DNA of 37,256 nt. It comes from a virus. Its lineage: Duplodnaviria; Heunggongvirae; Uroviricota; Caudoviricetes. A program made the translations under genes and the position numbers. Below, in pieces: positions 935 to 29,640 of this stretch. The DNA lies in the IMG/VR virus record IMGVR_UViG_2537561978_000007, one strand, 5' to 3'. The notes beneath the pieces were generated by a model. That model did no database searches and was not told where the DNA came from. It saw only the letters and a program-made list of their open reading frames with translations. Position 1 is the stretch's first letter, and every line of letters begins with the position of its first letter.

Positions 935-2620
935 GTGAATATAAACGTCGCCGAATTGTTAAATGGGAATTACATTCTGTTATTATTTGTGGTCCTCGCG
1001 CTTGGGCTATGTCTCGGGAAATTACGACTTGGTTCGATCCAACTGGGTAATTCCATTGGCGTTTTAGTCGTATCGCTGTTATTAGGCCAACAACATTTCA
1101 GCATTAACACCGACGCGCTTAATCTTGGCTTTATGCTGTTTATTTTCTGCGTCGGGGTCGAAGCCGGACCGAACTTTTTTTCCATTTTTTTTCGCGATGG
1201 GAAAAATTACCTAATGTTAGCACTGGTGATGGTTGGCAGTGCGCTGGTGATCGCCTTAGGGTTAGGTAAGCTGTTTGGCTGGGATATTGGCCTGACGGCC
1301 GGTATGTTAGCTGGCTCTATGACGTCGACACCGGTTCTGGTCGGTGCTGGCGATACACTGCGTCATTCCGGCATGGAAAGCAGGCAGCTCTCACTGGCAC
1401 TGGATAATCTGAGCCTCGGGTATGCCTTAACCTATTTAATCGGTCTGGTGAGTTTGATTGTTGGTGCGCGTTACTTGCCGAAATTGCAGCATCAGGACTT
1501 ACAGACCAGCGCCCAGCAAATCGCCCGCGAACGTGGCCTGGACACTGATGCCAACCGTAAGGTTTATTTACCGGTGATCCGCGCCTACCGCGTCGGCCCG
1601 GAGCTGGTGGCCTGGACCGACGGCAAAAATCTGCGTGAACTGGGTATTTATCGACAAACTGGCTGCTACATTGAACGTATTCGACGTAACGGGATTCTGG
1701 CGAATCCAGACGGTGATGCTGTGCTACAAATGGGCGATGAAATAGCGTTGGTAGGCTATCCCGACGCCCACGCACGACTCGATCCCAGCTTCCGTAACGG
1801 CAAAGAAGTTTTCGATCGTGACCTTCTCGACATGCGTATCGTCACTGAAGAAGTGGTCGTTAAAAACCATAACGCCGTGGGCAAACGTCTCGCACAACTG
1901 AAGTTGACCGATCACGGTTGCTTCCTTAACCGCGTCATTCGTAGCCAGATTGAGATGCCGATAGATGACAACGTCGTGCTTAACAAAGGTGACGTTTTAC
2001 AAGTCAGCGGCGATGCCCGTCGCGTAAAAACCATCGCCGATCGCATCGGCTTTATCTCGATTCACAGCCAGGTCACTGACTTGCTGGCATTCTGCGCCTT
2101 CTTTGTTATTGGGCTGATGATCGGGATGATCACCTTCCAGTTCAGCACATTCAGTTTCGGCATGGGGAACGCTGCCGGGTTGTTATTCGCCGGAATTATG
2201 CTGGGATTTATGCGCGCTAACCACCCGACCTTCGGTTACATTCCGCAGGGTGCATTAAGCATGGTGAAAGAGTTCGGCTTAATGGTGTTTATGGCAGGCG
2301 TTGGTCTGAGCGCCGGTAGCGGTATTAATAACGGCCTAGGCGCGATTGGCGGTCAGATGTTGATTGCCGGATTGATTGTCAGTCTTGTGCCAGTGGTTAT
2401 CTGTTTCTTGTTCGGTGCTTATGTATTGCGAATGAACCGCGCACTGTTGTTCGGCGCAATGATGGGCGCACGCACCTGCGCGCCGGCAATGGAGATCATC
2501 AGTGATACAGCTCGCAGTAACATCCCGGCGCTGGGCTATGCGGGCACCTATGCAATCGCCAACGTCCTGCTGACGCTGGCAGGGACAATCATCGTCATGG
2601 TATGGCCAGGATTAGGATAA
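935..2620 (+). CDS. ybjL: Putative transporter YbjL (AAE-family permease with central soluble domains)
   Basis: 561 aa; hydrophobic N- and C-terminal halves flanking a soluble middle; N-terminus [20 protein letters not shown] as I recall for YbjL. Confidence 0.85.
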
Positions 2621-2733
2621 AACTGAAGTTGCCCTGAAAATGAAATTTTTTTGCACAACCGCAGAACTTTTCCGCAGGGCATCAGTCTTAATTAGTGCCA
2701 CTGCTTTTCTTTGATGTCCCCATTTTGTGGAGC

Positions 2734-2779
2734 CCATCAACCCCGCCATTTCGGTTCAAGGTTGATGGGTTTTTTGTTG
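2734..2779. terminator. Hairpin plus T-tract in the host/prophage junction
   Basis: CCCATCAACC (2734-2743) ... GGTTGATGGG (2761-2770) followed by TTTTTTGTT; lies between ybjL stop and the prophage ogr gene. Confidence 0.4.
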
Positions 2780-2855
2780 CCTGAAATTTAAGATGTTTAA
2801 AATCATGATGTTAGAAGCACTGTTTTTTAACGATGGCGACAAAATGGCGGCAGCG

Positions 2856-3074
2856 TCAAAGAGAGAGCGCCACCTGTCCTGATTTCATTGGATGCGGCTG
2901 AACTGGATTAGACTCTTTTGGTGTTGCAATCGAACGAACAAAAGTTTCATGGGTAACAAAAGTATGGCTGCAGTTAATGTTCTGGCACTGGTTATAACGC
3001 TCTTTGGTCAATGAAGATACCTGAAAACTGCTGCGAGTATGGGCGGCACTTCCACACAGTGGGCAAATCATCAT
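2856..3074 (-). CDS. ogr: Late-gene transcriptional activator, Ogr/B zinc-finger family
   Basis: C4 zinc finger CPLCGSAAH...CQNINCSHTF and 72 aa from the internal Met, matching P2 Ogr / 186 B; the ORF-track N-terminal extension to 3107 is probably not translated. Confidence 0.85.
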   Translation of the reverse strand: MMICPLCGSAAHTRSSFQVSSLTKERYNQCQNINCSHTFVTHETFVRSIATPKESNPVQPHPMKSGQVALSL

Positions 3075-3164
3075 TTTTCGAGTTCTCCCCATTTTTGCTA
3101 AATTCACAACAATGATACCGTATTATTCCATTTTGCAAACTTAAAAGTTCTCCATTGCGAAGAA

Positions 3165-4265
3165 TCATTCCATTTCGAAATCATCAATCCTCACTTCAAG
3201 CTCCAGACTGGTCGTAAAACCGTTATCCGGGCTGACGGTATGTGTCAGAGTCGTAATGGTCCATTCCGCATCATCTATCGGCTGTTTAAAACCACTGACC
3301 TTCACAGGCATTTCCGTGTAGAGATCTGCCCGCCCTTCCGCCAGTTGTAGCGAGAATGACGCAACGCCACGTTGCAGGCGTTCCCACTGCATTTTCGCTG
3401 CCCGTTCGGCGTTACTCCGATTGGCATAGGTGCGATTGAGTACCAGCACGTTTTCATCCGTACCCACCAGGTAATCACCCTGCTTCACTTCCGGCTCTTT
3501 CTTCTGCTTCTTAGTTCTGCGCTTACGCTTCACCGTGGTGCTTTCTTTCTTCGCAGGTTCGCGGGTATGCAACCAGCTGGCAATGACGCCCGTGTAGGCT
3601 CCGCGATCTGCCAGGGTAAAGCGGTGACTGTCGCCGTCCTTGCGTGTGATAGTGATCACTGGCAGTGGTTTACCAGTGGCGCTTTTGCCCTGCCCCTGCC
3701 GGATGAATAACAGATTGCCATTTTTCACCGACGCGATGGCACCGTACTGTCGCGCCAGCCGCATCAGAAAACTGCCGTCACTCTCATTAGTCTGGTCTAT
3801 ATGCTCCACGGGCTTATCCGACAGGTCTTTACCCAGTGCCATCTTCAGCTTGTGACGCGCGGCTATTTCCTTAACCACTTCCCCGATGGTGGTGTTATGC
3901 CACGATTTTTCACGGCGGGTATTCAGGGTTTCCCGAAAATCAGCACTTCGCGCCCGGATAGTCAGGCGGTCCGGTGCGCCAGTGTGTTCAATCTCGTCCA
4001 CCGTGAATGCCCCTTTCGGGAAAAGCGGCTGCCCCTTCCAGCCCAGCGCCAGCGTAATGACCGCACCACGGCGCGGCAGCACGATTTTTCCGTCAGCGTC
4101 GTCCAGCTCCAGATCAAGCTGGTCCGCTTCAAAGCCCCGGTTATCCGTCAGCGTAAGCCCCATCAGGCGGTTGTCCAGCACAGTGGTGATATCCTTGCCT
4201 GCAATACTGATGCTGAATGCCGGAGTTTTGTTGCTTTTGTTAAGCAGTTCAGAGCTGAAATTCAC
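3165..4265 (-). CDS. D: Tail protein D (late control gene D)
   Basis: 366 aa; P2 gpD-like sequence and position between U and ogr. Confidence 0.9.
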   Translation of the reverse strand: MNFSSELLNKSNKTPAFSISIAGKDITTVLDNRLMGLTLTDNRGFEADQLDLELDDADGKIVLPRRGAVITLALGWKGQPLFPKGAFTVDEIEHTGAPDRLTIRARSADFRETLNTRREKSWHNTTIGEVVKEIAARHKLKMALGKDLSDKPVEHIDQTNESDGSFLMRLARQYGAIASVKNGNLLFIRQGQGKSATGKPLPVITITRKDGDSHRFTLADRGAYTGVIASWLHTREPAKKESTTVKRKRRTKKQKKEPEVKQGDYLVGTDENVLVLNRTYANRSNAERAAKMQWERLQRGVASFSLQLAEGRADLYTEMPVKVSGFKQPIDDAEWTITTLTHTVSPDNGFTTSLELEVRIDDFEME

Positions 4266-4747: not shown

Positions 4748-7700
4748 GCGTCGTATCCCCCCTGATCGCTGTAGTTACTCCTGGCTTTTGCCTTCAGCCT
4801 GCGTTCACGTTCATCAAGCTGACGGGCCACCTCCCGCGCAATATCCTGCGCACTTTGTCCTGGCTGCGTCTGAATGATGATCTGCGTCGGTGCCTCAATC
4901 CGTTGAACGGGCGGCACAGTGGCTGCACGACTCACCATCGCTTCGCCGCCTTTCGCGGGAAGTGCCAAAGGATGTAACGGTGGAAGCTCTGCAGGCGCGG
5001 CAGCAACGCCCATCATTCCGGCAACAACAGCAGCCAGTGCAGCGGTATTTTTCCGGCTGGTCACATTTGCCGGGCCGTTAACAATTTCCGGCCCGTTTTC
5101 ACCGACGATGCCAAACTGCCCGCGCGGGATATAGCCGCCGCTGTCATACATCCCCGCAAAGCCATATCCCCATGACGGAAAACCACCCGATGGCATCATC
5201 ACTTTGCCGTCTGCATTCACCGTCGCAGGTTGCTGACGCGTCACGCGTTCCGGCAGTTTTGCCTTTGCGGCCTCTTTACTGACAATGCCGAGTTTTTCCA
5301 GCAACCAGGATACGCCGGATTTCAGGGAGTCCAGCGGATGCATGACCATATTCAGTCCTTCCGCCAGTGCCTCCCCGAATCGTTGCCCCATTGCCGCTGC
5401 GCTCTGCAGTTCAGCAGAGGTCGACTTAACGGGCGTCAGCAGATCAGTAAACCAGCCCCACAACGCCTGCACTTTGTCGCCAATCCACTGGAACACAGGC
5501 TTAAGTGGTTCGAATGCGGCACTGACGGGACCAGCCGCTGCTTTGAATCCTTCCACCACGCCACCGAGAAATGCGGTGATGGGTTGCCAGTATTTCCAGA
5601 CAACCAGTGCCACACCCGCCAGTGCTGTAACCACAAGACCTATTGGACTAAGCAGAGCACCTAACAGACCAGATACGGCATACAGGGCAACGCGCAACAT
5701 CGCCAGTGGACCAGATGCCAGTACTCGCAGCACCGCGCCTGCGGCGGTCAGTCCACCGCGTAGTGCTGCCAGTGGATTCATAAACATCACAGCAACCGCA
5801 CGTAAACCGGATAATCCAGACCGCAACAGTGCAACCGGCGCACCTGCTACAGTTTTCAGGACATTTCCCGTCAGTGATGCCGTGCGGCGCAAAGACGACA
5901 ACGGCGCAGTAAGTAAACCCGCGGCGTTGCCCGATGAAGCAAGCCCGCGTCGCAGCTGTGCCAGTGGTGCGCCAGCCAGCCAGGACAACGCGCTGCTGGT
6001 TCGAGTTACTGCTGCCGTAACGGAAGGTAACGTTTTGATACCCAGCACAGAGAATCCCAGACGGATCACTGCCAGCGGCCCCAGCACTGCAGCCAGCGCT
6101 ACCGCTAAGGTGCCGAGGCCTACGGTAACCGCAGCCACCACAGCGGCTACTTTCATCAGTGTGCCTGTCAGTCCCGGGTTAGCTTCCACCCAGCGGCGCA
6201 ACGCCCCCGTGATGCTTTTCACCGTGTACAGAATATCCATCAGCGGCTGGCGCAGCGTCTCGCCCAGGCTGCTGAAGGTGTTCTGCGCTCCGGTTTTGAT
6301 CAGCAACCACTGCGCAGAAAGTGAGTCCTTGTTAATGTCGGATTCTTTCTGCATGGAAGCGAGCGCATCATTGCCCGCTGTCAGTTTTAGCTGGCGCTGC
6401 AGTTCCGGAAGGTTGTTTGCCAGTTTCGCCGCGTCATCACCAAACTCTTTACCAAACAACATGGTCATGGCAGACAGACGCTTGTCCTGCGGCAGTGCGT
6501 TCACCTTCTCCAGCACACGCTGGATAGTTCCCATCGCATCCTTCGTCATCTGCTTTTCAATCACTTCAGGATTGAGTTTCAGCAGATTCATCCCTTCAAA
6601 GAAACTCTTGCTTTGCATGGTGGCAATGGACAATTCACGCACCATCGCGTTTGCTGCACTGGCTGCAACCTCCGGCGCAGCGCCCAGTGTCAGAAAGGTG
6701 GAACCCAGTGCCGCCGCTTTACGATAATCCAGACGGTCAGCCACACCGCCCAGACGTTGCATCACATCAATGATGTCCGCCCCTTTCGACATGGCGTTAT
6801 CATCCAGATAGTTCAGTGCATCGCCGAGCTGTTCAATATTGCGGGTAGGTATTTTGTAGAGCTGGGCGATTTTCCCCAGACTTTCTGACAGTTCATCCGC
6901 TGGCAGCTCAAAGGCTGTTGCCGCCTTTGCTGCCGTACTGGCGAAGGCCAGCAGGTCACGTTTCTGGTCTTCCCAGCTGTCGTCAGGGTTTGCGACGTTC
7001 ATGCGCGCACCACCTTCAACCAGTGCAGCGAAGTCCACCGCACCGTTTTCCATCGGCAACTGTTCGCTGGCAGCCTTGATGGCATCCTGCATTTCATAAA
7101 AACGTACAGTGCGGTTGCCATTATCGTCACGCAGACCATTGACCTGCTTTGCCACACCTTTCATGGCATCTTCCATGCTGGTATAGCTTTTTACTGCCGC
7201 CATCACTGGCGCACCCATTGCCAGCCCTGCAGCCGTGGTAGTGGCTCCGGCTCCTGCGATGCGATCGCGCACTTCAAGCCGTCTTGAGTATTGTTCTCTG
7301 GCAGCGTTCATCCGTGCCTGTTGTTCACCCAGACGTTTAAGTGCTTTTTGCTGACCCTCCAGTGCCTGCCTTGTTTCTTCAGCATTTTTCTTAAGTTCTC
7401 GCTGGGCACTACTGAGTTGTCTGGTATCAATCCCTGATTCTTTAAGTGCCTGACGTTGTCTTTGGACCGCCCCCAACAAGCCGTTATAGGTCTGCTGAAG
7501 TTCCTGTACTCGTGTTTTGGCCTGACTGAATAACTTTGCCTGCGCGGCGGTTGGCCTGTTAGTGGCAGCAAATTGTGTGGCGAGTTTTGCCGCCTCTTCG
7601 CGGGCTGCGTTCAGGTTGTTGGCTGTTATGGCTAGTTGCGAGCGCGTCTTGCGAAATTCATCAATTCTGCCAGCCTGCTTATTCAGTTCTTTGAGGCTGT

Positions 7701-7821: not shown

Positions 7822-8250
7822 CGTTGGCCCCGCTTCTCTGAATCGCTTTATACCGCCATTCCAGCACTTCGGTCAGCGCCATAACGTCAGTAACGGATGG
7901 CGGCCAGTGAAAGATGGTGGCGATATCAGCCACCAGATCGTCAACCGTCAGGCTGTCGGTAAACCGGCAAGCACCGACTTCTTCAACAAAAAAGTGACAA
8001 CCTCAACCGACATGGCAGTGAGATCTGCCGGGTCCATCTCTGCAATTTCCTGTGCAGTCAGTGCCGGACTGGAGATGCGGGGGATCACGGTCATCATCGC
8101 GTTCACATCCATATCCATAATGGCCTGCAGGCGTGTACCGCGCAGCGCACCGGACTGCGGTTTACGCAGCACAATTTCGGTAATTTCTGTTTTACCGCGC
8201 TTGATAGGGGTATCCAGTTGAATGGTCTTTTCAGTCTGCTTATCGCTCAT
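7814..8250 (-). CDS. Tail assembly chaperone E+E' (programmed -1 frameshift product)
   Basis: Slippery TTTTTTG at 7986-7992 (minus strand); the -1 frame continues ...VEEVGACRFTDSLTVDDLVADIATIFHWPPSVTDVMALTEVLEWRYKAIQRSGANDE and stops at 7814, overlapping the T start codon. Confidence 0.65.
7948..8250 (-). CDS. E: Tail assembly chaperone E
   Basis: 100 aa, P2 gpE-like; contains slippery heptamer T_TTT_TTG near its 3' end. Confidence 0.85.
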   Translation of the reverse strand: MSDKQTEKTIQLDTPIKRGKTEITEIVLRKPQSGALRGTRLQAIMDMDVNAMMTVIPRISSPALTAQEIAEMDPADLTAMSVEVVTFLLKKSVLAGLPTA

Positions 8251-8304
8251 TTTGTTGTCCTGTAAATTGGGTTCTGGCGCGGCATTCCGCGCCGTTCAGA
8301 TACA

Positions 8305-8820
8305 TCAGAGGCCGAGAGCGTTGCGGTGCGCTTCCATCAGGTCCACACCGTCCACAATTTCCACCATGTTGATAAGGTCCACTTCATAGAGCACCTCACC
8401 ATTGATGGTCAGCTTCGCGTAGCTGTTGGTACTGGTCACTTTGGTGGTGTTGCTTTCGCCCGTCTTCCACTCACCGGAATCCACTTCTTTGTGACGTCCA
8501 CGCACCACAAGCTCCACGGCCTGCACTTCCCCGGTATCGTCACGCTGGATAGAGCCGGTAAAGCGCAACTGGATGCCATCCACCGTGGCTTTGCCTATCT
8601 GCTTAAACAGCAGCAGTTCAGTACCACCAATGGAAAATTCTGTGTCCAGCGCACTGTCATCAAGCCCCAGATCCACATCCACTGCCCCCGGCATTCCGCC
8701 GCCGCGATACTTCTCATATTTGCGGGTGAATTTCGGCAGCGTCAGCGACTCAACGATCCCCTGCCAGTTGTTCCCGTCGTTAAACAGGTTCAGGTGTTTT
8801 AATTTGCGTGGTAAAGCCAT
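8305..8820 (-). CDS. FII: Major tail tube protein
   Basis: 171 aa; P2 gpFII-like (MALPRKLKHLNLFNDGNNWQG...). Confidence 0.9.
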   Translation of the reverse strand: MALPRKLKHLNLFNDGNNWQGIVESLTLPKFTRKYEKYRGGGMPGAVDVDLGLDDSALDTEFSIGGTELLLFKQIGKATVDGIQLRFTGSIQRDDTGEVQAVELVVRGRHKEVDSGEWKTGESNTTKVTSTNSYAKLTINGEVLYEVDLINMVEIVDGVDLMEAHRNALGL

Positions 8821-10144: not shown

Positions 10145-10717
10145 TCAGGGAGATTCATTGCTCTTATTTGCCGGAAATTTTCTATAAATGGTAGAAACGC
10201 CTACATCAAAAATCAGTGCAATACGCTGTCTTGATTCTCCGGCCTCGAGTAAACGCCCAATCTGTGCCCACTGTTCGGTAGTCAACTTAGGACGGCGTCC
10301 ACCTACTCTGCCTTTAGCACGAGCTGCAGCCAGCCCTGCCCTGGTACGTTCAACTATCAGTTCGCGTTCCATTTCAGCCAGGGCACCCATGACATGAAAA
10401 AAGAAACTGCCCATTGGGGTACTGGTATCAATACTGTCAGTCAGACTTCGGAAATTCACGCCGCGCTGGCGCAACTCTTCTATCAGCGTAACAAGATGCC
10501 GCATACTGCGCCCCAACCTGTCCAGCTTCCAGACAACCAGTGTGTCACCTGCCGATAGTGTCCTGAGCAGTTTTTTAAGCCCCGGTCTGTCGGACTTAGT
10601 GCCACTGATTTTGTCCTCAAAAATCCGCTCACATCCCGCGCAGTTCAGCGCACTACGTTGCAAATCGGTGTTCTGGTCATTTGTTGACACGCGTACATAG
10701 CCAATAAGCATGATCAT
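10145..10717 (-). CDS. Serine-recombinase DNA invertase (Pin/Gin/Hin/Cin family)
   Basis: 190 aa; resolvase catalytic region IGYVRVSTNDQNTDLQ and C-terminal HTH; very similar to my recollection of e14 Pin; sits at the P2 Z/fun position beside an invertible segment; true start may be the Met at 10711. Confidence 0.9.
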   Translation of the reverse strand: MIMLIGYVRVSTNDQNTDLQRSALNCAGCERIFEDKISGTKSDRPGLKKLLRTLSAGDTLVVWKLDRLGRSMRHLVTLIEELRQRGVNFRSLTDSIDTSTPMGSFFFHVMGALAEMERELIVERTRAGLAAARAKGRVGGRRPKLTTEQWAQIGRLLEAGESRQRIALIFDVGVSTIYRKFPANKSNESP

Positions 10718-10766
10718 CTCCTTGAATAAAAACCGGGGATGATGCCAGTTAGTCGTAATCGCTGCA

Positions 10767-10792
10767 TTTTCTTAAACGTTGGTTTAGGAGAA
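10767..10792. repeat. Invertase crossover site (left), hix/gix-like 26-bp site
   Basis: Minus-strand reading TTCTCCTAAACC-AA-CGTTTAAGAAAA; 15-bp perfect inverted repeat TTGGTTTAGGAGAAG (10779-10793) with the site inside gene H. Confidence 0.6.
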
Positions 10793-11137
10793 GCGGCGAA
10801 AAGGGATGTGGGCACAGGAGATAATCAGATACCGGATATGTCTTTCTGGTCTTCCGCATCGGGTGGCGTTAATTTCCCTAATGGATTCCAGATGCGATTC
10901 GGTGCTATCGCTGGTAATGGTGGAAAATTATTTTCTACGCCATTTACAAATCAGTGCTATGGCATTGTTTTCGGACAAACATATGGAGCCAACTACTGGA
11001 TGTTCAGCCCGATGTACAGAGCATCTGATCTGAGTAATACCAGTTTTGCATTCATTAACAAAGCCTGGTCTGGAATTCCGGGGACAGGTGCTCAGGACGC
11101 TGGTGAATCAGTTTTTTATATTGCAGTAGGGTATTAA
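10781..11137 (+). CDS. Alternative (currently unexpressed) tail-fibre C-terminal variable segment
   Basis: Frame continues from the crossover-site motif LGLGE shared with gene H (H: AYLGLGEG; here VGLGEAAK); no independent start expected, becomes H C-terminus after inversion. Confidence 0.55.
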   Translation, partial: GLGEAAKRDVGTGDNQIPDMSFWSSASGGVNFPNGFQMRFGAIAGNGGKLFSTPFTNQCYGIVFGQTYGANYWMFSPMYRASDLSNTSFAFINKAWSGIPGTGAQDAGESVFYIAVGY

Positions 11138-11138
11138 T

Positions 11139-11582
11139 ATGGAAATGGTTTATAGCGCCTCAAATAATAGTTTTTTCGCTAAAAATGATGTGGCGAAATA
11201 TGAACAGGCCGGATGGGAACTTGCTGATATTGTCGAAGTGACATATGACACTTACCTGGAATTTATTGAAGACAGAACGTTGCAAGGGAAAGTACGCATC
11301 GCGGGTGATGATGGCCTTCCCACCTGGGGGGAAATTCCACCGCCAACTCATGAGGAACAAATTGCCGCAGCCGAACTGGAAAAGCAGCAATTGATTAATC
11401 AGGTCAACGAATACATATACAGTAAGCAATGGCCTGGTAAAGCAGCGATTGGTCGCCTGAAAGGTGAGGAACTGGCGCAATATAATTTGTGGCTGGATTA
11501 TCTGGACGCACTGGAACTGGTTGATACCTCCAGTGCTCCAGATATTGAATGGCCTACGCCTCCGGCAGTTCAGGCCAGATGA
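11139..11582 (+). CDS. Alternative tail-fibre assembly chaperone (Tfa/U'-like)
   Basis: 147 aa; C-terminal tfa motif ...DYLDALELVDTSSAPDIEWPTPP paralleling the minus-strand tfa (...DYIDAVTATDTSTAPDVIWPELP); 3' ends of the two tfa genes overlap convergently. Confidence 0.7.
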   Translation: MEMVYSASNNSFFAKNDVAKYEQAGWELADIVEVTYDTYLEFIEDRTLQGKVRIAGDDGLPTWGEIPPPTHEEQIAAAELEKQQLINQVNEYIYSKQWPGKAAIGRLKGEELAQYNLWLDYLDALELVDTSSAPDIEWPTPPAVQAR

Positions 11583-12156
11583 CGTCCGGCGCTGTGCTGG
11601 TATCTGTTGCCGTCACCGCATCAATGTAATCCAGCACAGCGTTAAGTCGGGTGTTTTCTGTCTGCGTCAGCTTCCGCCCGGCCTGCAATTTCAGTTGAAT
11701 CAGACTAATGGAAGCCATTGCAGTATCAATCAGTGACTGACGCTGTGCTTCTGCCGCGTCTAGTGTGGCGCTATGCTGTGCCTCAGTATCTGTCACCCAT
11801 TTCTCACCATCCCATTCATCGTATGGCGTTAACGGGGCGATAGTGGTTGTATTTTCAGGGTAATCACCTGGTGCTGTGATTTCTTTTGATTCTCCTGTTT
11901 CGGTGCTAAAAACGATTTCACCGCGATGGTCTGGCACATATTCCCATGAGTTAAAATCTGCAGAACGGCAGATTGCATAACCAGCTTTACATGTAACTGG
12001 TGAATCTAAACAGGAATATGCAGGGATACCGACACCAATGGCAAGATATTCATTTGAAGTAGAAATATATTCCCGAGTTTTACCATCATAGTTATAGACG
12101 GTAATATTCCCCGCCTTCGTGGCAATAATCTCGCTATTTAATACGGCGTTATCCAT
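11554..12156 (-). CDS. G: Tail-fibre assembly chaperone (gpG/Tfa), active orientation
   Basis: 200 aa; immediately downstream of H; conserved tfa C-terminus. Confidence 0.8.
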   Translation of the reverse strand: MDNAVLNSEIIATKAGNITVYNYDGKTREYISTSNEYLAIGVGIPAYSCLDSPVTCKAGYAICRSADFNSWEYVPDHRGEIVFSTETGESKEITAPGDYPENTTTIAPLTPYDEWDGEKWVTDTEAQHSATLDAAEAQRQSLIDTAMASISLIQLKLQAGRKLTQTENTRLNAVLDYIDAVTATDTSTAPDVIWPELPEA

Positions 12157-15122: not shown

Positions 15123-15468
15123 TCTCTGCTCCTGTCGATACGGAAAGGGACACAGGTACACCGTTATTCCGCCGCCCGGTCAGCTCCACCACCATAGAAC
15201 CGTCAAAGTTGCTGTTGATGGTGATGGAATCCAGCGTCAGCCGTGGCTCCCAGCGACTCAGCGCCACATACACTGCCGACATGACCTGCAGGCGTAACGC
15301 CGGATTTTGTGGCTGGTCTATCAGTGCCGACAGCAGGGAACCATATTCCCGGCGGGCAATGCGGCTACCCTGCGGTGTCAGCAGAATGTCCCGCACCGAC
15401 TGGCGCAGATGGTCAATATCAGTAATAGCTTTGCCGCTGGTATTGTTCATCCCGCTATAAAGCGTCAT
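15109..15468 (-). CDS. W: Baseplate assembly protein W
   Basis: 119 aa; P2 gpW-like (GpW/gp25 lysozyme-like baseplate wedge). Confidence 0.85.
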   Translation of the reverse strand: MTLYSGMNNTSGKAITDIDHLRQSVRDILLTPQGSRIARREYGSLLSALIDQPQNPALRLQVMSAVYVALSRWEPRLTLDSITINSNFDGSMVVELTGRRNNGVPVSLSVSTGAENGSD

Positions 15469-16043
15469 ACCGGGCCTCCGGTTGTGTCGCCGCCTTTCAG
15501 GACGCCAGTATGCTGATGTGCATCAACCACAATTCCGTTAGAACTCATTGCACCGCCGCCCTGGGTAACACCACCATTGATCACTACTTCGCTGTTAATA
15601 CGCGTGCGGTCAGCCTCCAGCACAAACTCTCTGGTTTTCAGGGTGATGTTGTCAGCAGCCTCAATGACCATGGATTTGATGCCCCTGACATACCAGCGCC
15701 CGGTGGCTGGTTCGTATTCAAACCAGCCACCGTCAGGATGTTCTGTCACGCAGGCTTCCGCCGACGTCGACGGTGGTGCGAACTGATTCGAATAGACAGC
15801 GGGCAGCGCAAAGGCGGTTTCCAGATTTCCTCCCAGACTCAGCAGCACCACCTGCTCACCTTCCGATGGTCGCCACCATGTGCGGGCATTACCCGCGCGC
15901 AGCGTCAGCCAGTTAATCCAGTTGGTTTCAAGGTCGCCCGTTTTCACCCGACAAAGCCAGTTTTCCTTGTCCACTTCAGTGACTACCCCTGTGCGGATCA
16001 GGTTGGTGATAAGGCGCATGATTTCTGTGAGTTGTGTATTCAT
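15465..16043 (-). CDS. V: Baseplate spike/assembly protein V
   Basis: P2 gpV-like from MNTQLTEIMRL...; start chosen at internal Met, the upstream 22 codons of the ORF are AT-rich intergenic sequence. Confidence 0.8.
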   Translation of the reverse strand: MNTQLTEIMRLITNLIRTGVVTEVDKENWLCRVKTGDLETNWINWLTLRAGNARTWWRPSEGEQVVLLSLGGNLETAFALPAVYSNQFAPPSTSAEACVTEHPDGGWFEYEPATGRWYVRGIKSMVIEAADNITLKTREFVLEADRTRINSEVVINGGVTQGGGAMSSNGIVVDAHQHTGVLKGGDTTGGPV

Positions 16044-16136
16044 AAGATTATTTTTCCATGCTTTACACAACCTCTTCAAACAGCTTATTTTGTATAAAAG
16101 AAGATACAATTTTCTTTGAAAAGAAATAAACCCTCT

Positions 16137-16191
16137 GGTTAGAGGTTAGAGGTTAGAGGTTAGAGGTTAGAGGTTAGAGGTTAGAGGTTAG
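16137..16191. repeat. Perfect heptanucleotide tandem repeat (GGTTAGA) x7 plus a partial copy
   Basis: Read directly: ggttagaggttagaggttagaggttagaggttagaggttagaggttag; intergenic between gene V and the OLD-like cargo gene. Confidence 0.95.
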
Positions 16192-16199
16192 TAGAATAT

Positions 16200-16217
16200 C
16201 GCAGGGTTTCCCCTGCG
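16200..16217 (-). terminator. Short hairpin just downstream of the cargo-gene stop
   Basis: CGCAGGG-tttc-CCCTGCG, 9 bp after the stop at 16226; no strong U-tract, so weak. Confidence 0.3.
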
Positions 16218-16225
16218 ACCATTTA

Positions 16226-18184
16226 TCAATTAAACTTTACAGGTTTATCACTTATAAAAAAATTTTCAATTTTGGCAATCCACTCTGGCCTTTTCCGCTC
16301 ATTTCGCTCACAGATTGAAATATATTCCTTTGAAAAATCAAACTTAATTCCTTCACGGTCAAAAAAAGCATCAAGCGTTTTTTTGTTCTTGGGTGACAAA
16401 TCCATCGCAGCAAACGATGAATGTCTTTCATCTATCATAACATTACTATTAGGCAGCAATGCCTGAAGCTCAGGAAAACGTGAAGAAAATGATGTTAAAG
16501 CCTCTATAAACGATACAGGATTAAGACAATCCTCTATTTCTGTTGCAGGAGAAACTGGATTGGAAGAAATATCAACCAACTTCACTGAATCACCTACACT
16601 AACAATTCGCTTACAAACAACATGCGGCATAACTGGGGTATCATATGACACCAACTCTGAATCTGTATCGGTTAGTAAGAACACTTTTCCTTTGAGGTCT
16701 TTTTTGAACTCTTCATAAGAAGCTTCTAAATGCTTAAATATTTTTTTAACTTCACTAGCTCCCCCTACAGGCACAATCCTTAGCCTTTTATTTTCTACCA
16801 AGTCCTTTAGATAATGCGAAAGATATATTTTTTCTGTAGTACCCTCACAAATCAACCAATTGTAAGGTTTCTCAGCCAAACAGCTAGATATTATGGATTG
16901 TATAAGGTCATTTACACTTTTTATTTTTATATCAAATGGCATACCCGGGGAAGAGGTTTTTACTTTCTTCCTGACTTCTTCTCTATAACTGGCAAGATCA
17001 TATAATTCAAAATGATGAGTTGAATCTGTTTTAAGGATAGTTGTGGTACATCCATTTTCGACGGTTGGAAGATAGCCATACCAATGTGAAGTAAATATTA
17101 ATTGTTCACATATACCACTAATAGAATAGAGCTTTTCAAATTGTTCAAAACATGCAGACATATGAAGAGAACATTCTGGCTCATCAATTCCAATAATCAG
17201 ATTATCGCCATTTTCTCTATGATTGGTAAGAAACCCATATGCAATATCCATTATTGCACGTTGCTTCTCCCCTGAACTTAGCGAGCTAATTTCAATCCAA
17301 CCTGAATTCTGCTTTTTATTTAATTTCCTAACTTTGAAGAATGCTTCGATAATCAAATTATAAACATCTTTCTTTTTTAATCGCGATTGTCTCTCGCCAG
17401 ATGTTCTATAACCATATTCTTCAAGCTCCTCTTCAACACCATCCAGAAATTTGGCAAGCCCTGTATTGATTTGACTTATGGTTCTATCAGATATTCTATC
17501 TTTAATTATCTGCTCTAAAGACTCACCCATCAACTTTTGTACTTCACTTGTTTCTAGCTTCGTAAACGATTCAGAGTCTATATCCTTTGGAATATATATA
17601 TATTCATACTTATGGCGGACATGATGTAATAAATACCCAAAGTGCTTACTAAGCAACTCGCTCGAAACTTTATTATCGGGATTATCAACCTCCAAAAGTC
17701 GACATAAACTCTTCCCATTAAGAATCGAAATACTTACATCACCATCTTTCTCGACACCCAGAGGGATCAAAAAATAATCTTGGAGATTTAAATTTCTTTT
17801 TAATTTGTTAATATGTTCAAAAAACGTATTAATTATATTTCGTGTTGTTGGCGTCAATGTAACATCAGCATTACTATTGCTATATTCTAATACTAATTGC
17901 GTTAAGATTTCAGCTTTAGCATGATGATCTTCATGTAATTCCTCTCGCTTTATAAGATATAAAGGAACAATATGTGGAGAAGGTCTGTCACTGGAGGTTC
18001 TTTTAAATGAAGAATTAATATTCCATGGTTTGTTATTAATAAACGAATCTAAAGCCTCAAGAACAGAACTTTTGCCAATTCCATTGTTACCAACAATTCC
18101 ACAAAACTGACTTCCAGAAGATAACGGTATGTAATGATTTCCGTTGTATGTTTTAAAATACCTTAAAAAAATCCCTACTATCAT
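16226..18184 (-). CDS. OLD-family ABC-ATPase/Toprim nuclease (class-1 OLD-like or fused PARIS-like); anti-phage defence candidate
   Basis: 652 aa; Walker A GIVGNNGIGKSSVLEAL; ABC signature-like LSSGEKQ; Walker B/D-loop LIIGIDEPECSLH; H-loop TSH; C-terminal Toprim motifs ICEGTTE and LLTDTDSE; aligns by eye to P2 Old (LVGYNNAGKS, FIDEPELYLHP, LLVEGKTE, ADCDF); strongly AT-rich relative to flanking phage genes. Confidence 0.75.
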   Translation of the reverse strand: MIVGIFLRYFKTYNGNHYIPLSSGSQFCGIVGNNGIGKSSVLEALDSFINNKPWNINSSFKRTSSDRPSPHIVPLYLIKREELHEDHHAKAEILTQLVLEYSNSNADVTLTPTTRNIINTFFEHINKLKRNLNLQDYFLIPLGVEKDGDVSISILNGKSLCRLLEVDNPDNKVSSELLSKHFGYLLHHVRHKYEYIYIPKDIDSESFTKLETSEVQKLMGESLEQIIKDRISDRTISQINTGLAKFLDGVEEELEEYGYRTSGERQSRLKKKDVYNLIIEAFFKVRKLNKKQNSGWIEISSLSSGEKQRAIMDIAYGFLTNHRENGDNLIIGIDEPECSLHMSACFEQFEKLYSISGICEQLIFTSHWYGYLPTVENGCTTTILKTDSTHHFELYDLASYREEVRKKVKTSSPGMPFDIKIKSVNDLIQSIISSCLAEKPYNWLICEGTTEKIYLSHYLKDLVENKRLRIVPVGGASEVKKIFKHLEASYEEFKKDLKGKVFLLTDTDSELVSYDTPVMPHVVCKRIVSVGDSVKLVDISSNPVSPATEIEDCLNPVSFIEALTSFSSRFPELQALLPNSNVMIDERHSSFAAMDLSPKNKKTLDAFFDREGIKFDFSKEYISICERNERKRPEWIAKIENFFISDKPVKFN

Positions 18185-18329
18185 AAAATTAGCTCCATTA
18201 GTGAGGTGAAGACATTAAAGTACAACAAGATTAATCTCAAAAAAAGAGCTTTATAGTATATTCAAGCAAGGTATCTTATGTAGAACGATAAAGTCTCCCT
18301 CCACTAATTCTCTTAACCCACTATTTACT

Positions 18330-18767
18330 TTAGCGTTTTAAGTAAACACCCAAGTTCAAGTTACTAATATCCTTAGTAAATCCTAAAAGCCTTCTCTCAG
18401 GGTACTGTACTTTTAAACCTCTTCGACTAACACGGTCACGCAGTCCATAGTGGTGTACACAGGCGATGCGCTGGACTTTTCCATCAAAATACACGCAGGC
18501 ATAATCCGCTGTGGCGGCAGTTTTCAGGTATTTATTAGTGCGCAATTTGGCGAACATCTGGCGTTTGATGCGCCCCTTCTTACTGCGGGCTGCTACCCGG
18601 CGCGGCTCAAAGCCGCTGCCATCAGGGTTAAGCTGCAGCCTGATATTCTTCTGCTGATTGCGGCGCAACTCCTGCGCCAGTTCCCGCATCATACGCTGGC
18701 GTGTGGCAGGCTCCAGATTCGCCAGCAAGGCCGCCAGCCACTCATCCACCTTCTGCAGTTCAGCCAC
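18330..18767 (-). CDS. S: Tail completion protein S
   Basis: 145 aa; P2 gpS-like; overlaps R by 8 bp. Confidence 0.8.
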   Translation of the reverse strand: MAELQKVDEWLAALLANLEPATRQRMMRELAQELRRNQQKNIRLQLNPDGSGFEPRRVAARSKKGRIKRQMFAKLRTNKYLKTAATADYACVYFDGKVQRIACVHHYGLRDRVSRRGLKVQYPERRLLGFTKDISNLNLGVYLKR

Positions 18768-27087: not shown

Positions 27088-27534
27088 CTAAGATTCTGTC
27101 GTTGTCTCTAATGAACACCAAGCATTAATTCCCATTTTTGAGACAGCTATCAACATAATTACTACAGCTGGAGCAATAAATGTTGCTGTTGCCCCCAAAG
27201 AACCCGCAATTGCCGAAGAGATCACCCCTACAAAGTATGTTTTAACATCACCAGTCAGTGCTCCTAAACATTCCCTCTCCTCTGCATATTTATCACCTCC
27301 ACATACAAAAGCCTTAAACTCTAATTTAAACTGCTCAACAAACGCTTTTCTTCCCGGCATTTTTGAATTATCACCGCCAAATTGAGCAACTGAACTTGGG
27401 CCAGATGCAGTTAGCCATAGCTCAAGAGCCTTTTCTTCATCGCCATTTTCGAGAAAATTCCTGACAGATGAAGATTGATACGTTTTTAAAGTGGACAACC
27501 AAGACTCAGCATCTTCATTTGGTATAGCAATCAT
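27088..27534 (-). CDS. Small tail-anchored membrane protein, unknown function (cargo gene 2 of the protease cassette)
   Basis: 148 aa; soluble acidic N-terminus, C-terminal about 40-residue hydrophobic Gly/Ala-rich hairpin (YFVGVISSAIAGSLGATATFIAPAVVIMLIAV); ATGA overlap with upstream protease gene; AT-rich. Confidence 0.6.
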   Translation of the reverse strand: MIAIPNEDAESWLSTLKTYQSSSVRNFLENGDEEKALELWLTASGPSSVAQFGGDNSKMPGRKAFVEQFKLEFKAFVCGGDKYAEERECLGALTGDVKTYFVGVISSAIAGSLGATATFIAPAVVIMLIAVSKMGINAWCSLETTTES

Positions 27535-28178
27535 AACATATCCTTAACATATTCTGCAGAAACCGCATAAGTTGTCTGATGTAGTTCAGCTGGATTAATA
27601 CCTCCAACCAAAACAGAACCTCCAGAATTATTTGCATAAGCGCCAACCAAGACGCCTATTACCGAGTCATTTTTTAAATTAAATACAATCGATCCCGATT
27701 GACCAGGTCTGGTTTGGATATTTATAACGGCATGTTTAGATTGAATATTACTGCTTGAAAGTAAAACTTTTGCACCTATTTTTGCCGTTTGAAATGTCAA
27801 TACTTTTCTATTTTCATTACAATGTGGGAAACCTAAAATACCCACATCTTCACCGACATTAACATCGTCAAGAGTAGCAATTTTTAGGCAAGGTTCATAA
27901 ACAGGTGCATTTTTAATTTTTAACACACATAAGTCTTTTATTGGATCTTCATCAATAACATCAACTCCAATACATTGAAATTTATCAACACTTGTATCCT
28001 GATAACTATTAAAGTTATTTATATTAGATGGAGAAATAACTAAGTTAGAAGAAAACCCATTAATAACATGGCGGGAAGTAATTATTTTATCCTTAGAAAT
28101 AAAAAAACCTGTTCCTAAAAAACTAACCAAACCTGCATTAAGCACGCCAACAACTACGACATATTCAGGACCAATCAT
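27531..28178 (-). CDS. Trypsin-like (S1/Trypsin_2-type) serine peptidase, cargo gene 1
   Basis: 215 aa from the Met at 28178, with GGAG 6 nt upstream; catalytic-triad contexts GTGFFISKDKIITSRHV (His), DPIKDLCVLKI (Asp), TRPGQSGSIVFN (Ser); AT-rich. Confidence 0.7.
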   Translation of the reverse strand: MIGPEYVVVVGVLNAGLVSFLGTGFFISKDKIITSRHVINGFSSNLVISPSNINNFNSYQDTSVDKFQCIGVDVIDEDPIKDLCVLKIKNAPVYEPCLKIATLDDVNVGEDVGILGFPHCNENRKVLTFQTAKIGAKVLLSSSNIQSKHAVINIQTRPGQSGSIVFNLKNDSVIGVLVGAYANNSGGSVLVGGINPAELHQTTYAVSAEYVKDML

Positions 28179-28261
28179 AACAACTCCATTCTGTAATATG
28201 TTATGGACTCTGACTAAGACAATACTTAACCAAACCGTGAATATCAAGGTGCAAGCGCGCG

Positions 28262-28280
28262 CTCGTATCCCCGCCACGCC
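28262..28280 (-). other. Candidate cos cohesive-end sequence
   Basis: Minus-strand GGCGTGGCGGGGATACGAG; the first 13 nt match the P2/186 cohesive-end start GGCG(A/T)GGCGGGGA as I recall it; GC-rich island between Q-side cargo and the early region. Confidence 0.45.
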
Positions 28281-28622
28281 TGCCCGCTTTATGTAGTGGT
28301 TTTCATGCAGGAGCATGATCTACGCAAAAGCCCGCCAGTTCTGGCGGGCCTTAGCAAAAACGATCCTCAAACGATCATGCAATCTCATGCAGCATAGACA
28401 TGCACAGACGAGTAAAGCGAATCGGACTTTACGCAAGGTGAACTCCTCAGCGGGCATAATCAGTATGTCGGAAGATCTCTAAAAATAAATAATTCGGTTA
28501 ACAGGTATGCTTACAAAAGCATATATTTGATTAAAAATCATGTAAGGGGGAGGATCTCAAACTGAATCGCCACGGGTTTTACAAATTTCGATAGTCTCTC
28601 TAACGTTTCGGCTGAGGTCAAA

Positions 28623-29048
28623 ATGAAAAGCTTTTACGTATTAATTTTAATTCTGGTTGCAAGCTTTGTTAGCGTCCCTGTTCAGGCGGTAACAGCTAAA
28701 AACTATGAGAAAGGAACTAAAGCTCAACAGAAATCAATATCTTACCTTTCATGTGCATTCTATGGCAGTAGCACACAATTAGATCCTAGCTACACGGAGC
28801 AAGTACCTACAGCCGATATCAAGATATTACAGAAAGCAGCTTACCACGCTTACAACGATGCGCTCTCATACTTTGGCTATGAGGAACCAGATCACGAACA
28901 ACGCATAATTGATTATGCTGAATTTGTGGCGTCGCAAGAAGCTGTGTTATGGGATAAGCCGGGAATGAATGGAAAGCAGGTAACACTAATTGCTCGTTCT
29001 CTCTACAATGAGAGTAACTGTAACTTGTTACTGGACTCAATTAAGTAG
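28623..29048 (+). CDS. Secreted protein of unknown function (moron)
   Basis: 141 aa; signal peptide MKSFYVLILILVASFVSVPVQA; GAGG RBS; candidate promoter TTTACA-N17-TAACGT upstream; AT-rich. Confidence 0.6.
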   Translation: MKSFYVLILILVASFVSVPVQAVTAKNYEKGTKAQQKSISYLSCAFYGSSTQLDPSYTEQVPTADIKILQKAAYHAYNDALSYFGYEEPDHEQRIIDYAEFVASQEAVLWDKPGMNGKQVTLIARSLYNESNCNLLLDSIK

Positions 29049-29207
29049 GAAAAAGATGGTATTTTGCCCGTAGTTTCAACCTTAATCTCCGAACCTATCG
29101 CAGAACGGGCGTTCACTCATCAAATAAACGCCACACCTAACGCCTCACTGTACTCGTTGTTCAACCTTGCTGACGCCAGAACCAAGTTCAGACGCCAGCA
29201 ACTTTTC

Positions 29208-29441
29208 TTAATGCAGCCAGCTGTCGTCTTCCCACACCTTCTGCATAATCTTCATCACTTGTTTTCTTTCTTCGTCCAGTTGCAGTCCGGTCAGTTCCAC
29301 ACCGTTAGAGCTACCTTTGCGGATGCGAATTACCGTTTTGGGATACAGGGGGCGCAGATTGCGGTAAAGCTCGGATTCAAGGGCGTCCAGGGTAGACTGG
29401 CTAATCTTCTGCTCTTTATCGATCATTATTTCAATGCGCAT
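29208..29441 (-). CDS. DinI-like protein (C-terminal-like part of a 186 Tum-type antirepressor module)
   Basis: 78 aa from MRIEIMIDKEQ...; aligns with E. coli DinI (MRIEVTIAK...ALAGELSRR...QETWE); GAGGTGA RBS. Confidence 0.7.
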   Translation of the reverse strand: MRIEIMIDKEQKISQSTLDALESELYRNLRPLYPKTVIRIRKGSSNGVELTGLQLDEERKQVMKIMQKVWEDDSWLH

Positions 29442-29451
29442 AAAGGTCACC

Positions 29452-29640
29452 TCAGCTGATGACATCCATTGAGCGGTTGTATTCGTGGGTTCTGATTTTT
29501 GCCATGAGTTCATCTGTCAGTTCAGAAACCCACTGCAAAGCCAGCCCCTTCTCTTCATCACTACACTCACTAGCCGCTACAAGCTTAAGAAAAAAATCAA
29601 TGCGCTGGAGCTTCAAAGACTCCAAAAAATAGTCCTGCAT
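29452..29640 (-). CDS. Small hypothetical protein upstream of the DinI-like gene
   Basis: 63 aa from MQDYFLESL...; start placed downstream of the LexA box; stop 10 nt before the DinI-like start. Confidence 0.4.
   Translation of the reverse strand: MQDYFLESLKLQRIDFFLKLVAASECSDEEKGLALQWVSELTDELMAKIRTHEYNRSMDVIS

Follow-up and report, generated by a model that had tools for sequence, protein, structure and literature searches.

The OLD-type gene and its domain architecture

The DNA analyzed here is a stretch of 37,256 nucleotides (IMG/VR record IMGVR_UViG_2537561978_000007), called the window below, whose host element is a P2-like (Peduoviridae-type) prophage of E. coli. The prophage carries the genes D-U-T-FII-FI, a DNA invertase, tail fibre genes, I-J-W-V, S-R and lysis genes, together with head genes, P, Q, the replication gene A, a CI-type repressor and an integrase. 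Our subject is a single gene between the tail completion gene S (positions 18330–18767) and the baseplate gene V (15465–16043), both of which were identified by PHROG matches and by the RefSeq annotation of an identical E. coli locus. The gene occupies 16226–18184 on the minus strand (stop codon included), starts with ATG and encodes a 652-amino-acid (aa) protein, which we assign to the ATPase-Toprim enzymes of the OLD family on the grounds given below. A preliminary description made from the letters alone had placed a 652-aa open reading frame (ORF) between S and V at this position, and both the ORF list and re-translation bear it out. The protein is identical to RefSeq WP_000635034.1, which goes under the name 'AAA family ATPase'. 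The strong AT-richness claimed in the same description is equally real, with a G+C content (GC) of 0.337 in the coding sequence (CDS) and 0.338 in the cassette at 16045–18417 to which it belongs, compared with 0.558 in the surrounding late region. At the composition of the CDS, 652 stop-free codons would arise with a chance of ∼1e-24.

The N-terminal part of the protein (aa 1–395, encoded at 17000–18184) is an ABC-type ATPase region with a largely helical insertion at about aa 85–300, and the C-terminal part (aa 420–652, 16229–16927) is a nuclease region in which a Toprim core is followed by a helical domain; these and all further features of the gene and its cassette lie on the minus strand. 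Pfam searches matched AAA_15 at aa 7–367 with 64 bits (cut-off 32) and OLD-like_TOPRIM at aa 443–508 (16661–16858), a segment that includes E447, E451 and D506-T507-D508. OLD-like_TOPRIM scored 29 bits on the whole protein and 31.4 bits on the C-terminal half, both above the Pfam cut-off of 23.2, and a Toprim domain is thus present. The motifs quoted in the preliminary description are all found in the translation, namely GNNGIGKS at aa 32–39, LSSGEKQ at 302–308, IGIDEPECSLH from 331, ICEGTTE at 445–451 and TDTDSE at 505–510.

These motifs are strongly conserved in a set of 36 homologues at 47–91% identity. In the Walker A motif (18068–18091) G32, N34, G35, G37, K38 and S39 are invariant, as are all seven residues of the ABC signature LSSGEKQ (17261–17281), D334 and E335 of the Walker B motif LIIGIDEP (aa 329–336, 17177–17200) and H367 in the H-loop region TSHWYG (17075–17092). 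In the nuclease region E447, T507 and D508 are invariant, with E451 and D506 kept in at least 90% of the homologues. All residues of a TEIE motif further downstream (aa 548–551, 16532–16543) are invariant, and so is K614 (16343–16345).

In B. pseudomallei OLD (BpOLD), metal A is bound by E400, D455 and D457 and metal B by E404, T506 and E508, with K562 serving as the catalytic lysine (PMC6755086); the second metal site and the lysine are supplied by the helical domain behind Toprim. When order and spacing were compared, E451, T548/E549/E551 and K614 matched the BpOLD order at similar spacing, including the glutamate at +4. The TEIE residues are therefore candidate metal-B ligands by analogy with T506/E508 of BpOLD, and K614 is a candidate catalytic lysine by analogy with K562, in its case by order only. 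Because the conserved residues share the order and approximate spacing of BpOLD, a complete two-metal site in the 652-aa protein is plausible. As a member of the OLD family the protein would be predicted to act as a metal-dependent nuclease and as an ATPase.

When a structure model was compared with the PDB, the first 133 fold matches all had E ≤ 0.001, with GajA at the top (5e-13) and Retron-Eco8 OLD next (1e-12). For the nuclease domain alone the best fold match was the C-terminal region of B. pseudomallei OLD. OLD ATPases contain an inserted helical dimerisation domain. A candidate counterpart here is the ATPase insertion of ∼215 aa (aa ∼85–300), which is mostly helical in the model and has a predicted local distance difference test (pLDDT) score below 50 at aa 208–299. 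Searches of the PDB by sequence, made with the single sequence and with a family profile, reached no OLD structure and returned weak matches to SMC heads and AriA only; it is thus Pfam and the fold comparison that support the OLD assignment. A search of NCBIfam gave nothing near any cut-off, and PHROGs returned families of unknown function only. Taking the domain and fold matches as our guide, we classify the 652-aa protein as a predicted OLD-family ATPase-Toprim enzyme that is far by sequence from every characterised member.

The preliminary description had offered two matches for this architecture, a class-1 OLD nuclease such as P2 Old or a fused AriA-AriB protein of the PARIS type. The first is upheld by Pfam, by fold and by the genomic context described below. 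PARIS (AriA plus AriB, sometimes called Class 4 OLD) likewise combines an ABC ATPase with a Toprim nuclease and is often phage- or satellite-borne, and Rousset et al. reported that ariAB also occurs as a single-gene fusion. If the protein were a single-chain PARIS, its ATPase would sense an anti-restriction protein such as Ocr and activate the Toprim domain to cut host tRNA. In keeping with this idea, the best PADLOC match of the protein is an AriA model (1e-22; 'Old' comes next at 2e-11), AriA is the sole PDB sequence match outside SMC heads, and two-gene PARIS-like pairs (AAA ATPase plus DUF4435) occupy the S-V slot of other P2-like prophages. However, the AriA match covers the ATPase only, and this best-scoring model is practically as long as the generic AAA_15 profile and matches between the same boundaries. 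DUF4435 (PF14491) had no match at E ≤ 1 with the whole protein or at E ≤ 10 with the C-terminal half, where OLD-like_TOPRIM passes its cut-off instead. No AriB model was among the PADLOC matches of the C-terminal half, which were weak ones to PDC-M38B, AbiLii and HEC-01B, the Toprim partners of split ATPase+Toprim systems in PADLOC, and to the retron I-C Toprim. A fused AriAB model (PDLC02981, E 7e-9) matched the protein only in part, its best stretch being the ∼45 residues at aa 295–341.

Alignment by hhalign also separates the two possibilities. The match to P2 Old is collinear over 222 columns, which begin in the C-lobe of the ATPase and extend into the Toprim strand that bears the glutamate (probability 90%), whereas that to the AriA-like ATPase encoded at the S-V junction of phage 813R9 is limited to a 67-column core from the signature to the H-loop. 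The Toprim half alone, aligned with single Old or AriB-like sequences, gave probabilities below 3% in both cases. PARIS further differs in having two genes where a single gene is found here. With DUF4435 unmatched and the AriAB profile partial, we reject membership in a fused PARIS group and regard a single-chain PARIS as very unlikely.

Solitary context and relation to characterised OLD proteins

To describe the family we used a HMMER scan of 1.84 billion representative proteins, which gave 471 proteins at E ≤ 1e-3 and 250 at E ≤ 1e-30. Full-length members are mostly ∼620–700 aa. As far as single-sequence searching can tell, they form a discrete clade, with no link made to the far larger OLD/GajA families. 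A published Class 1 phylogeny kept proteins of 500–600 aa only (PMC12392090), a filter that would have left out the ∼650-aa clade. That range is a survey convention and no mechanistic criterion.

The homologues have no common genomic setting. We compared the neighbours within 3 kb of the gene in 66 species-level loci, which span Gamma-, Beta- and Alphaproteobacteria, Bacteroidota and Cyanobacteria, and found no protein family in more than 3 of them. Four divergent homologues stand in unrelated contexts. Those of Atlantibacter and Halopseudomonas lie in islands, the former in a SIR2/integrase island and the latter in a mobile island; the Sulfurimonas gene adjoins aconitase, and the Pantoea gene has the phn operon on one side and an MscS channel gene on the other. 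The six contexts that we inspected singly have nothing in common. Across 73 loci the gene is on average 0.12 lower in GC than its flanks, which is what horizontal mobility would lead one to expect.

The same holds for the gene in the window. Its S-V flanks contain no ORF of 20 aa or more except chance ones, and no partner ORF. The adjacent genes are the tail genes S and V with no helicase found, in agreement with the preliminary description, which had excluded a Gabija-type pair for this reason. No reverse transcriptase ORF lies near the gene, and an Rfam search of 15900–18600 at E ≤ 1 returned no match and hence no retron noncoding RNA. A Class 1 OLD is defined by context, as a single gene without a conserved partner (PMC10568477). 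Since neither a recurrent neighbour nor a small ORF nor an Rfam match was found, the protein is a solitary, Class-1-type OLD by genomic context, which excludes Class 2, Class 3 and two-gene PARIS.

Comparison with the individual classes agrees with this placement. Class 2 OLD proteins of Gabija (B. cereus GajA; BpOLD, PDB 6NK8) have a similar overall length, and candidate equivalents for the full BpOLD catalytic set are found in the 652-aa protein. The defining GajB/UvrD-type helicase of this class, however, is next to the gene neither here nor in any of at least 66 loci. Likewise, the Class 3 OLD effector of Retron-Eco8 comes with a reverse transcriptase and a retron noncoding RNA, neither of which was found near the OLD-type gene. 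We therefore rejected both a Gabija protein and a retron effector as candidates, there being no helicase, reverse transcriptase or noncoding RNA nearby.

The closest parallel in biology is P2 Old, the founding member of Class 1, encoded at the old/tin locus near cos. Like the gene described here it is solitary, AT-rich, non-essential lysogenic-conversion cargo of a P2-type prophage. In contrast, BLASTP similarity between the two proteins is confined to 79 aa around Walker B (30% identity, E 1e-4). They also differ in length (586 aa in P2 Old, 652 aa here), in location (the A-Q slot against the S-V slot) and in that the OLD-type gene is co-directional with the late genes. We conclude from these alignments that the protein is no more than a remote homologue of P2 Old, and with similarity restricted to the Walker B region and an S-V rather than an A-Q location, we rejected orthology. 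TsOLD (Thermus scotoductus, PDB 6P74), Vc OLD (Vibrio cholerae) and YbjD/OldB (E. coli) are likewise solitary and share the same two-domain plan. The TsOLD chain has 512 aa and YbjD 552 aa, and the OLD-type protein is 50–140 aa longer than these and than the 500–600 aa filter range.

Within a family to which Gabija, PARIS and retron effectors also belong, the Class 1 OLDs are the branch about which least is understood. Those reported to act alone in defence are the three that have been put to the test, and each behaves differently: P2 Old is activated on RecBCD inhibition and amputates tRNA anticodon stems (PMC12445682), Vc OLD nicks DNA independently of RecBCD (PMC12392090), and in YbjD the Toprim domain is not needed for the phenotype (PMC13261556). 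TsOLD differs again from the latter two as an exonuclease. Outside Class 1, GajA nicks DNA, an activity that ATP strongly inhibits (PMC10568477), and AriB cleaves tRNA. Because the known relatives disagree in activity, the substrate and trigger of the 652-aa protein cannot be read off them. The ∼650-aa clade would make a useful fourth test case, being a single gene that is well conserved and easily cloned and that has been overlooked owing to the name 'AAA family ATPase' and to length filters.

Within E. coli the gene is found in 14 genomes, and 13 of the 14 copies are intact and 99.7–100% identical. The remaining copy, in E. coli APEC 16-1068 (locus 1607–3564), is annotated as two CDS, both named 'AAA family ATPase'; the split reflects either a frameshift in an otherwise identical sequence or a sequencing error. 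Together with the existence of truncated homologues, this split copy could be taken to mean that the gene is a decaying, non-functional remnant of a horizontal acquisition, and according to a preprint (bioRxiv 10.64898/2026.09.05.749240) H-NS often silences foreign AT-rich DNA in E. coli. Against decay stand the 13 intact copies, the ORF that has stayed open despite its AT-rich, stop-prone sequence (by the chance estimate given above), the catalytic motifs that are invariant across phyla, and the predominance of ∼620–700 aa among full-length homologues. We judge a remnant to be highly improbable.

The S-V slot and its cassette

In P2 the S-V slot holds the non-essential orf30, a small ORF on the opposite strand. 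Here the same position is taken by a 2-kb OLD-type gene on the late-gene strand, and the slot carries its own version of the S 3′ end and of the pV promoter. A list of 2010 names the orf30 position as one of three regions at which P2-like phages acquire foreign genes (PMC3091744; also PMC6823313). Hotspot papers have treated the A-Q (old/tin) and Z/fun slots in detail (PMC9122126, PMC9519451, bioRxiv 2024.10.15.618418), and no analysis of the S-V slot was found in those that could be searched. As only the former two are covered in detail, the S-V slot offers an additional site in which to search for new systems.

To see what this slot contains, we searched for its flanks in complete E. coli genomes and found S plus V in 1,055 of 5,426. 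Occupancy was read from 58 informative rows, an even sample down the ranking of flank matches. The slot was empty in 29 of them (a span of 1.69 kb) and held cargo in the other 29; this occupancy is a lower bound, as inserts longer than ∼2.4 kb were not joined by the tool. The cargo consisted of DUF6216 (6 rows), a PARIS-like AAA ATPase plus DUF4435 (2), an AAA ATPase plus HNH (2) and GmrSD (2), besides SIR2, TIR, AIPR, FRG, DUF6602, an Sll1717-type ATPase, another AAA ATPase, several hypotheticals and the OLD-type gene itself, and it was found in both orientations. The OLD-type cassette is present in 14 of the ∼1,055 flank-bearing genomes. The preliminary description was therefore right to locate the gene at the S-V junction, but the junction is not otherwise conserved as it had stated; it is a known variable slot in which about half of the sampled prophages carry cargo. 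Nor does a conserved orthologue reside there, as the gene is absent from all 41 related phage records. This survey marks the S-V (orf30) slot as a rich defence hotspot, the variability itself having long been known.

The composition of the slot bears on whether the gene might serve the phage, either as a late nuclease that is read through from the S operon and degrades host or competitor DNA, or as a selfish addiction-type element. Its orientation is that of S and V, unlike that of P2 orf30 and of many other S-V cargos, and our scan found no terminator-like site between the S stop and the start of the gene. OLD proteins can also have roles other than defence, as does archaeal Cran1, which is reported to act in cell-cycle progression. 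However, the gene is absent from nearly all close phage relatives and therefore not needed for the lytic cycle. Most homologues, moreover, are lone chromosomal genes outside phages in three phyla, and the co-directional S-V cargos are otherwise typical defence genes (SIR2, TIR). A role in the service of the phage thus appears quite unlikely.

The borders of the inserted DNA were located by comparison with four P2-like phages, in which homology stops at the start codon of V (16044–16050) and resumes at 18418–18424, ∼30 codons inside the 3′ end of S. The whole AT-rich cassette at 16045–18417 thereby replaces the 68-bp S-V spacer of empty-site relatives, which has a TGT-N12-ACA dyad of its own. 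From S to V the cassette consists of the S C-terminus, an upstream region, the gene, a hairpin, a microsatellite, a small stem with a T-rich tail, and a dyad. The AT-rich replacement of the last ∼30 S codons (18330–18417) came with the cassette, so that S ends in ...ERRLLGFTKDISNLNLGVYLKR here and in ...ERRLLGVNDDVEAMTRDMILQWLAGG when translated from the empty-site junction sequence. The swapped tail thus encodes a diverged C-terminus, ...GFTKDISNLNLGVYLKR as opposed to ...GVNDDVEAMTRDMILQWLAGG in the empty-site phages. Because these codons are within the swapped segment, the recombination breakpoints fall within this essential tail gene, which tolerates the exchange of its tail.

The cassette also has a counterpart in another genus. 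In Cronobacter sakazakii, a different P2-like prophage has a 91%-identical gene in its S-V slot, in the same orientation. In Enterobacter ludwigii, a 38-aa S-like fragment (∼7250–7363) comes after a 45%-identical homologue, and a V homologue lies ∼800 bp further on (8193–8765); this arrangement may have been left behind when cassettes were exchanged at an earlier time, or the slot may hold several cargos.

Between S and the gene there are 145 bp of intergenic DNA (18185–18329). A consensus scan of this region picked out a promoter-like TCTACA-N18-TATACT (18284–18255) and a GGAG 8 nucleotides (nt) before the ATG, and the upstream block 'GATTAATCTTGTTGTACTTTAAT' is kept in the Cronobacter cassette. 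Directly after the stop codon, RNA folding predicts a 9-bp G+C-rich hairpin, GTCGCAGGG-GAAA-CCCTGCGAT, with a weak T tract (16198–16219). The segment 16090–16235 folds at −28.1 kcal/mol (z = −3.4), and the stem of the hairpin is kept in the Cronobacter cassette as well.

The hairpin is followed by a heptamer microsatellite, (CTAACCT)7 plus a partial unit (16137–16191), which is G-free and 43% C. It is the sole array of at least 4 copies in the window and essentially the top C-over-G-skewed 78-nt stretch on the minus strand. Three other E. coli strains with identical flanks have 8, 6 and 5 copies, and the Cronobacter cassette has a different unit, (CCTCTG)15, in the same place, with the CCTCT core common to both. 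An array of such composition would be suitable as a Rho-utilisation site, by which V might be insulated from the gene before it. Such an insulator is speculation, because other co-directional cassettes (SIR2, TIR, Sll1717) are without the array; for the same reason a general insulating role for co-directional cargo is not supported. A broader proposal holds that the ∼650-aa clade (∼470 representatives at 50% identity, three phyla) is a separate functional type of solitary OLD with its own trigger or substrate, for example a different RNA target, and that the G-free, C-rich microsatellite might be a tunable Rho-dependent insulator or a phase-variable element before pV. We consider this combination unlikely, though conceivable.

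Next toward V come a small terminator-like stem, CCTCT-AACC-AGAGG, with a T-rich tail (16118–16145) and a TGT-N12-ACA dyad (16091–16108) that lies 47 nt upstream of the V start and is the cassette's own version of the sequence. Ogr-type activators bind TGT-N12-ACA. The P2 annotation has an activator-binding site just upstream of V, and we presume that the dyad at 16091–16108 is the Ogr-type activator site of the late pV promoter. A TGT-N12-ACA dyad also stands upstream of V, within 140 nt of its start, in all eight other cassette types that were checked. The sequence around the V promoter differs from one cassette type to the next. Since the dyad is nevertheless kept in these and in the empty sites, the late promoter would survive every swap, being rebuilt each time.

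Proposed role in the lysogen and other prophage cargo

We propose that the protein is a solitary Class-1-type OLD enzyme carried as an S-V moron, and that it quite probably defends the lysogen against other phages. Our reason for favoring defence is the combination of architecture, conservation, mobility and the company of defence genes in the S-V slot. One homologue lies beside a SIR2 gene and an integrase, and the S-V slot itself harbors the PARIS-like, ATPase+HNH, GmrSD, SIR2, TIR and AIPR cargo listed above. In the mechanism that we envisage, the protein would be made in the lysogen from its own promoter, assemble into a homo-oligomer via the helical insertion of the ATPase head, and stay inactive until an infecting phage supplies the trigger. 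ATP binding or hydrolysis by the ABC head would then license the Toprim site (E447/E451, D506/D508, E549/E551 and K614) to cleave nucleic acid, which could be DNA, nicked or degraded as by Vc OLD, TsOLD and GajA, or tRNA, as with P2 Old and AriB. This would halt replication of the phage and probably sacrifice the infected cell.

Several observations weigh against this proposal. Similarity to every characterised OLD is limited to motifs at the sequence level, and of the PDB entries TsOLD, GajA and BpOLD none is reached by the family profile. Since the model has low confidence in the ATPase insertion, the oligomerisation step is weakly supported. At 652 aa the protein falls outside the 500–600 aa operational range of Class 1, the accession WP_000635034.1 occurs in no searchable paper, and an apparent frameshift splits one copy out of the 14 in E. 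coli. Finally, the gene is co-directional with the late operons, and with no terminator-like site found between S and its start, late read-through may take place and give the gene a part in the phage's own cycle. The oldest example in the field is itself a solitary OLD nuclease carried by a P2-type prophage, so the system is of a known kind; what is new here is the uncharacterised clade, the survey of the S-V hotspot and the hypervariable microsatellite.

The prophage has further cargo outside the S-V slot. In the classic cos-proximal hotspot between the portal gene Q and the replication gene A, a PDC-M35-type pair lies at 27088–28316 on the minus strand, consisting of PDC-M35B (148 aa, E 4e-58) and PDC-M35A (261 aa, a trypsin-like protease, E 8e-94). 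On these profile matches the pair is candidate defence cargo, and the prophage would therefore carry candidate defence cargo at no fewer than two slots. The same hotspot contains two small AT-rich ORFs on the plus strand, at 28623–29048 (141 aa) and 29064–29459 (131 aa), for which searches of Pfam and PADLOC gave no match. In the Z/fun-equivalent region (10145–12156), a 190-aa serine DNA invertase (Resolvase plus HTH_7) sits beside oppositely oriented tail-fibre and assembly ORFs, which is the arrangement of an invertible host-range switch.

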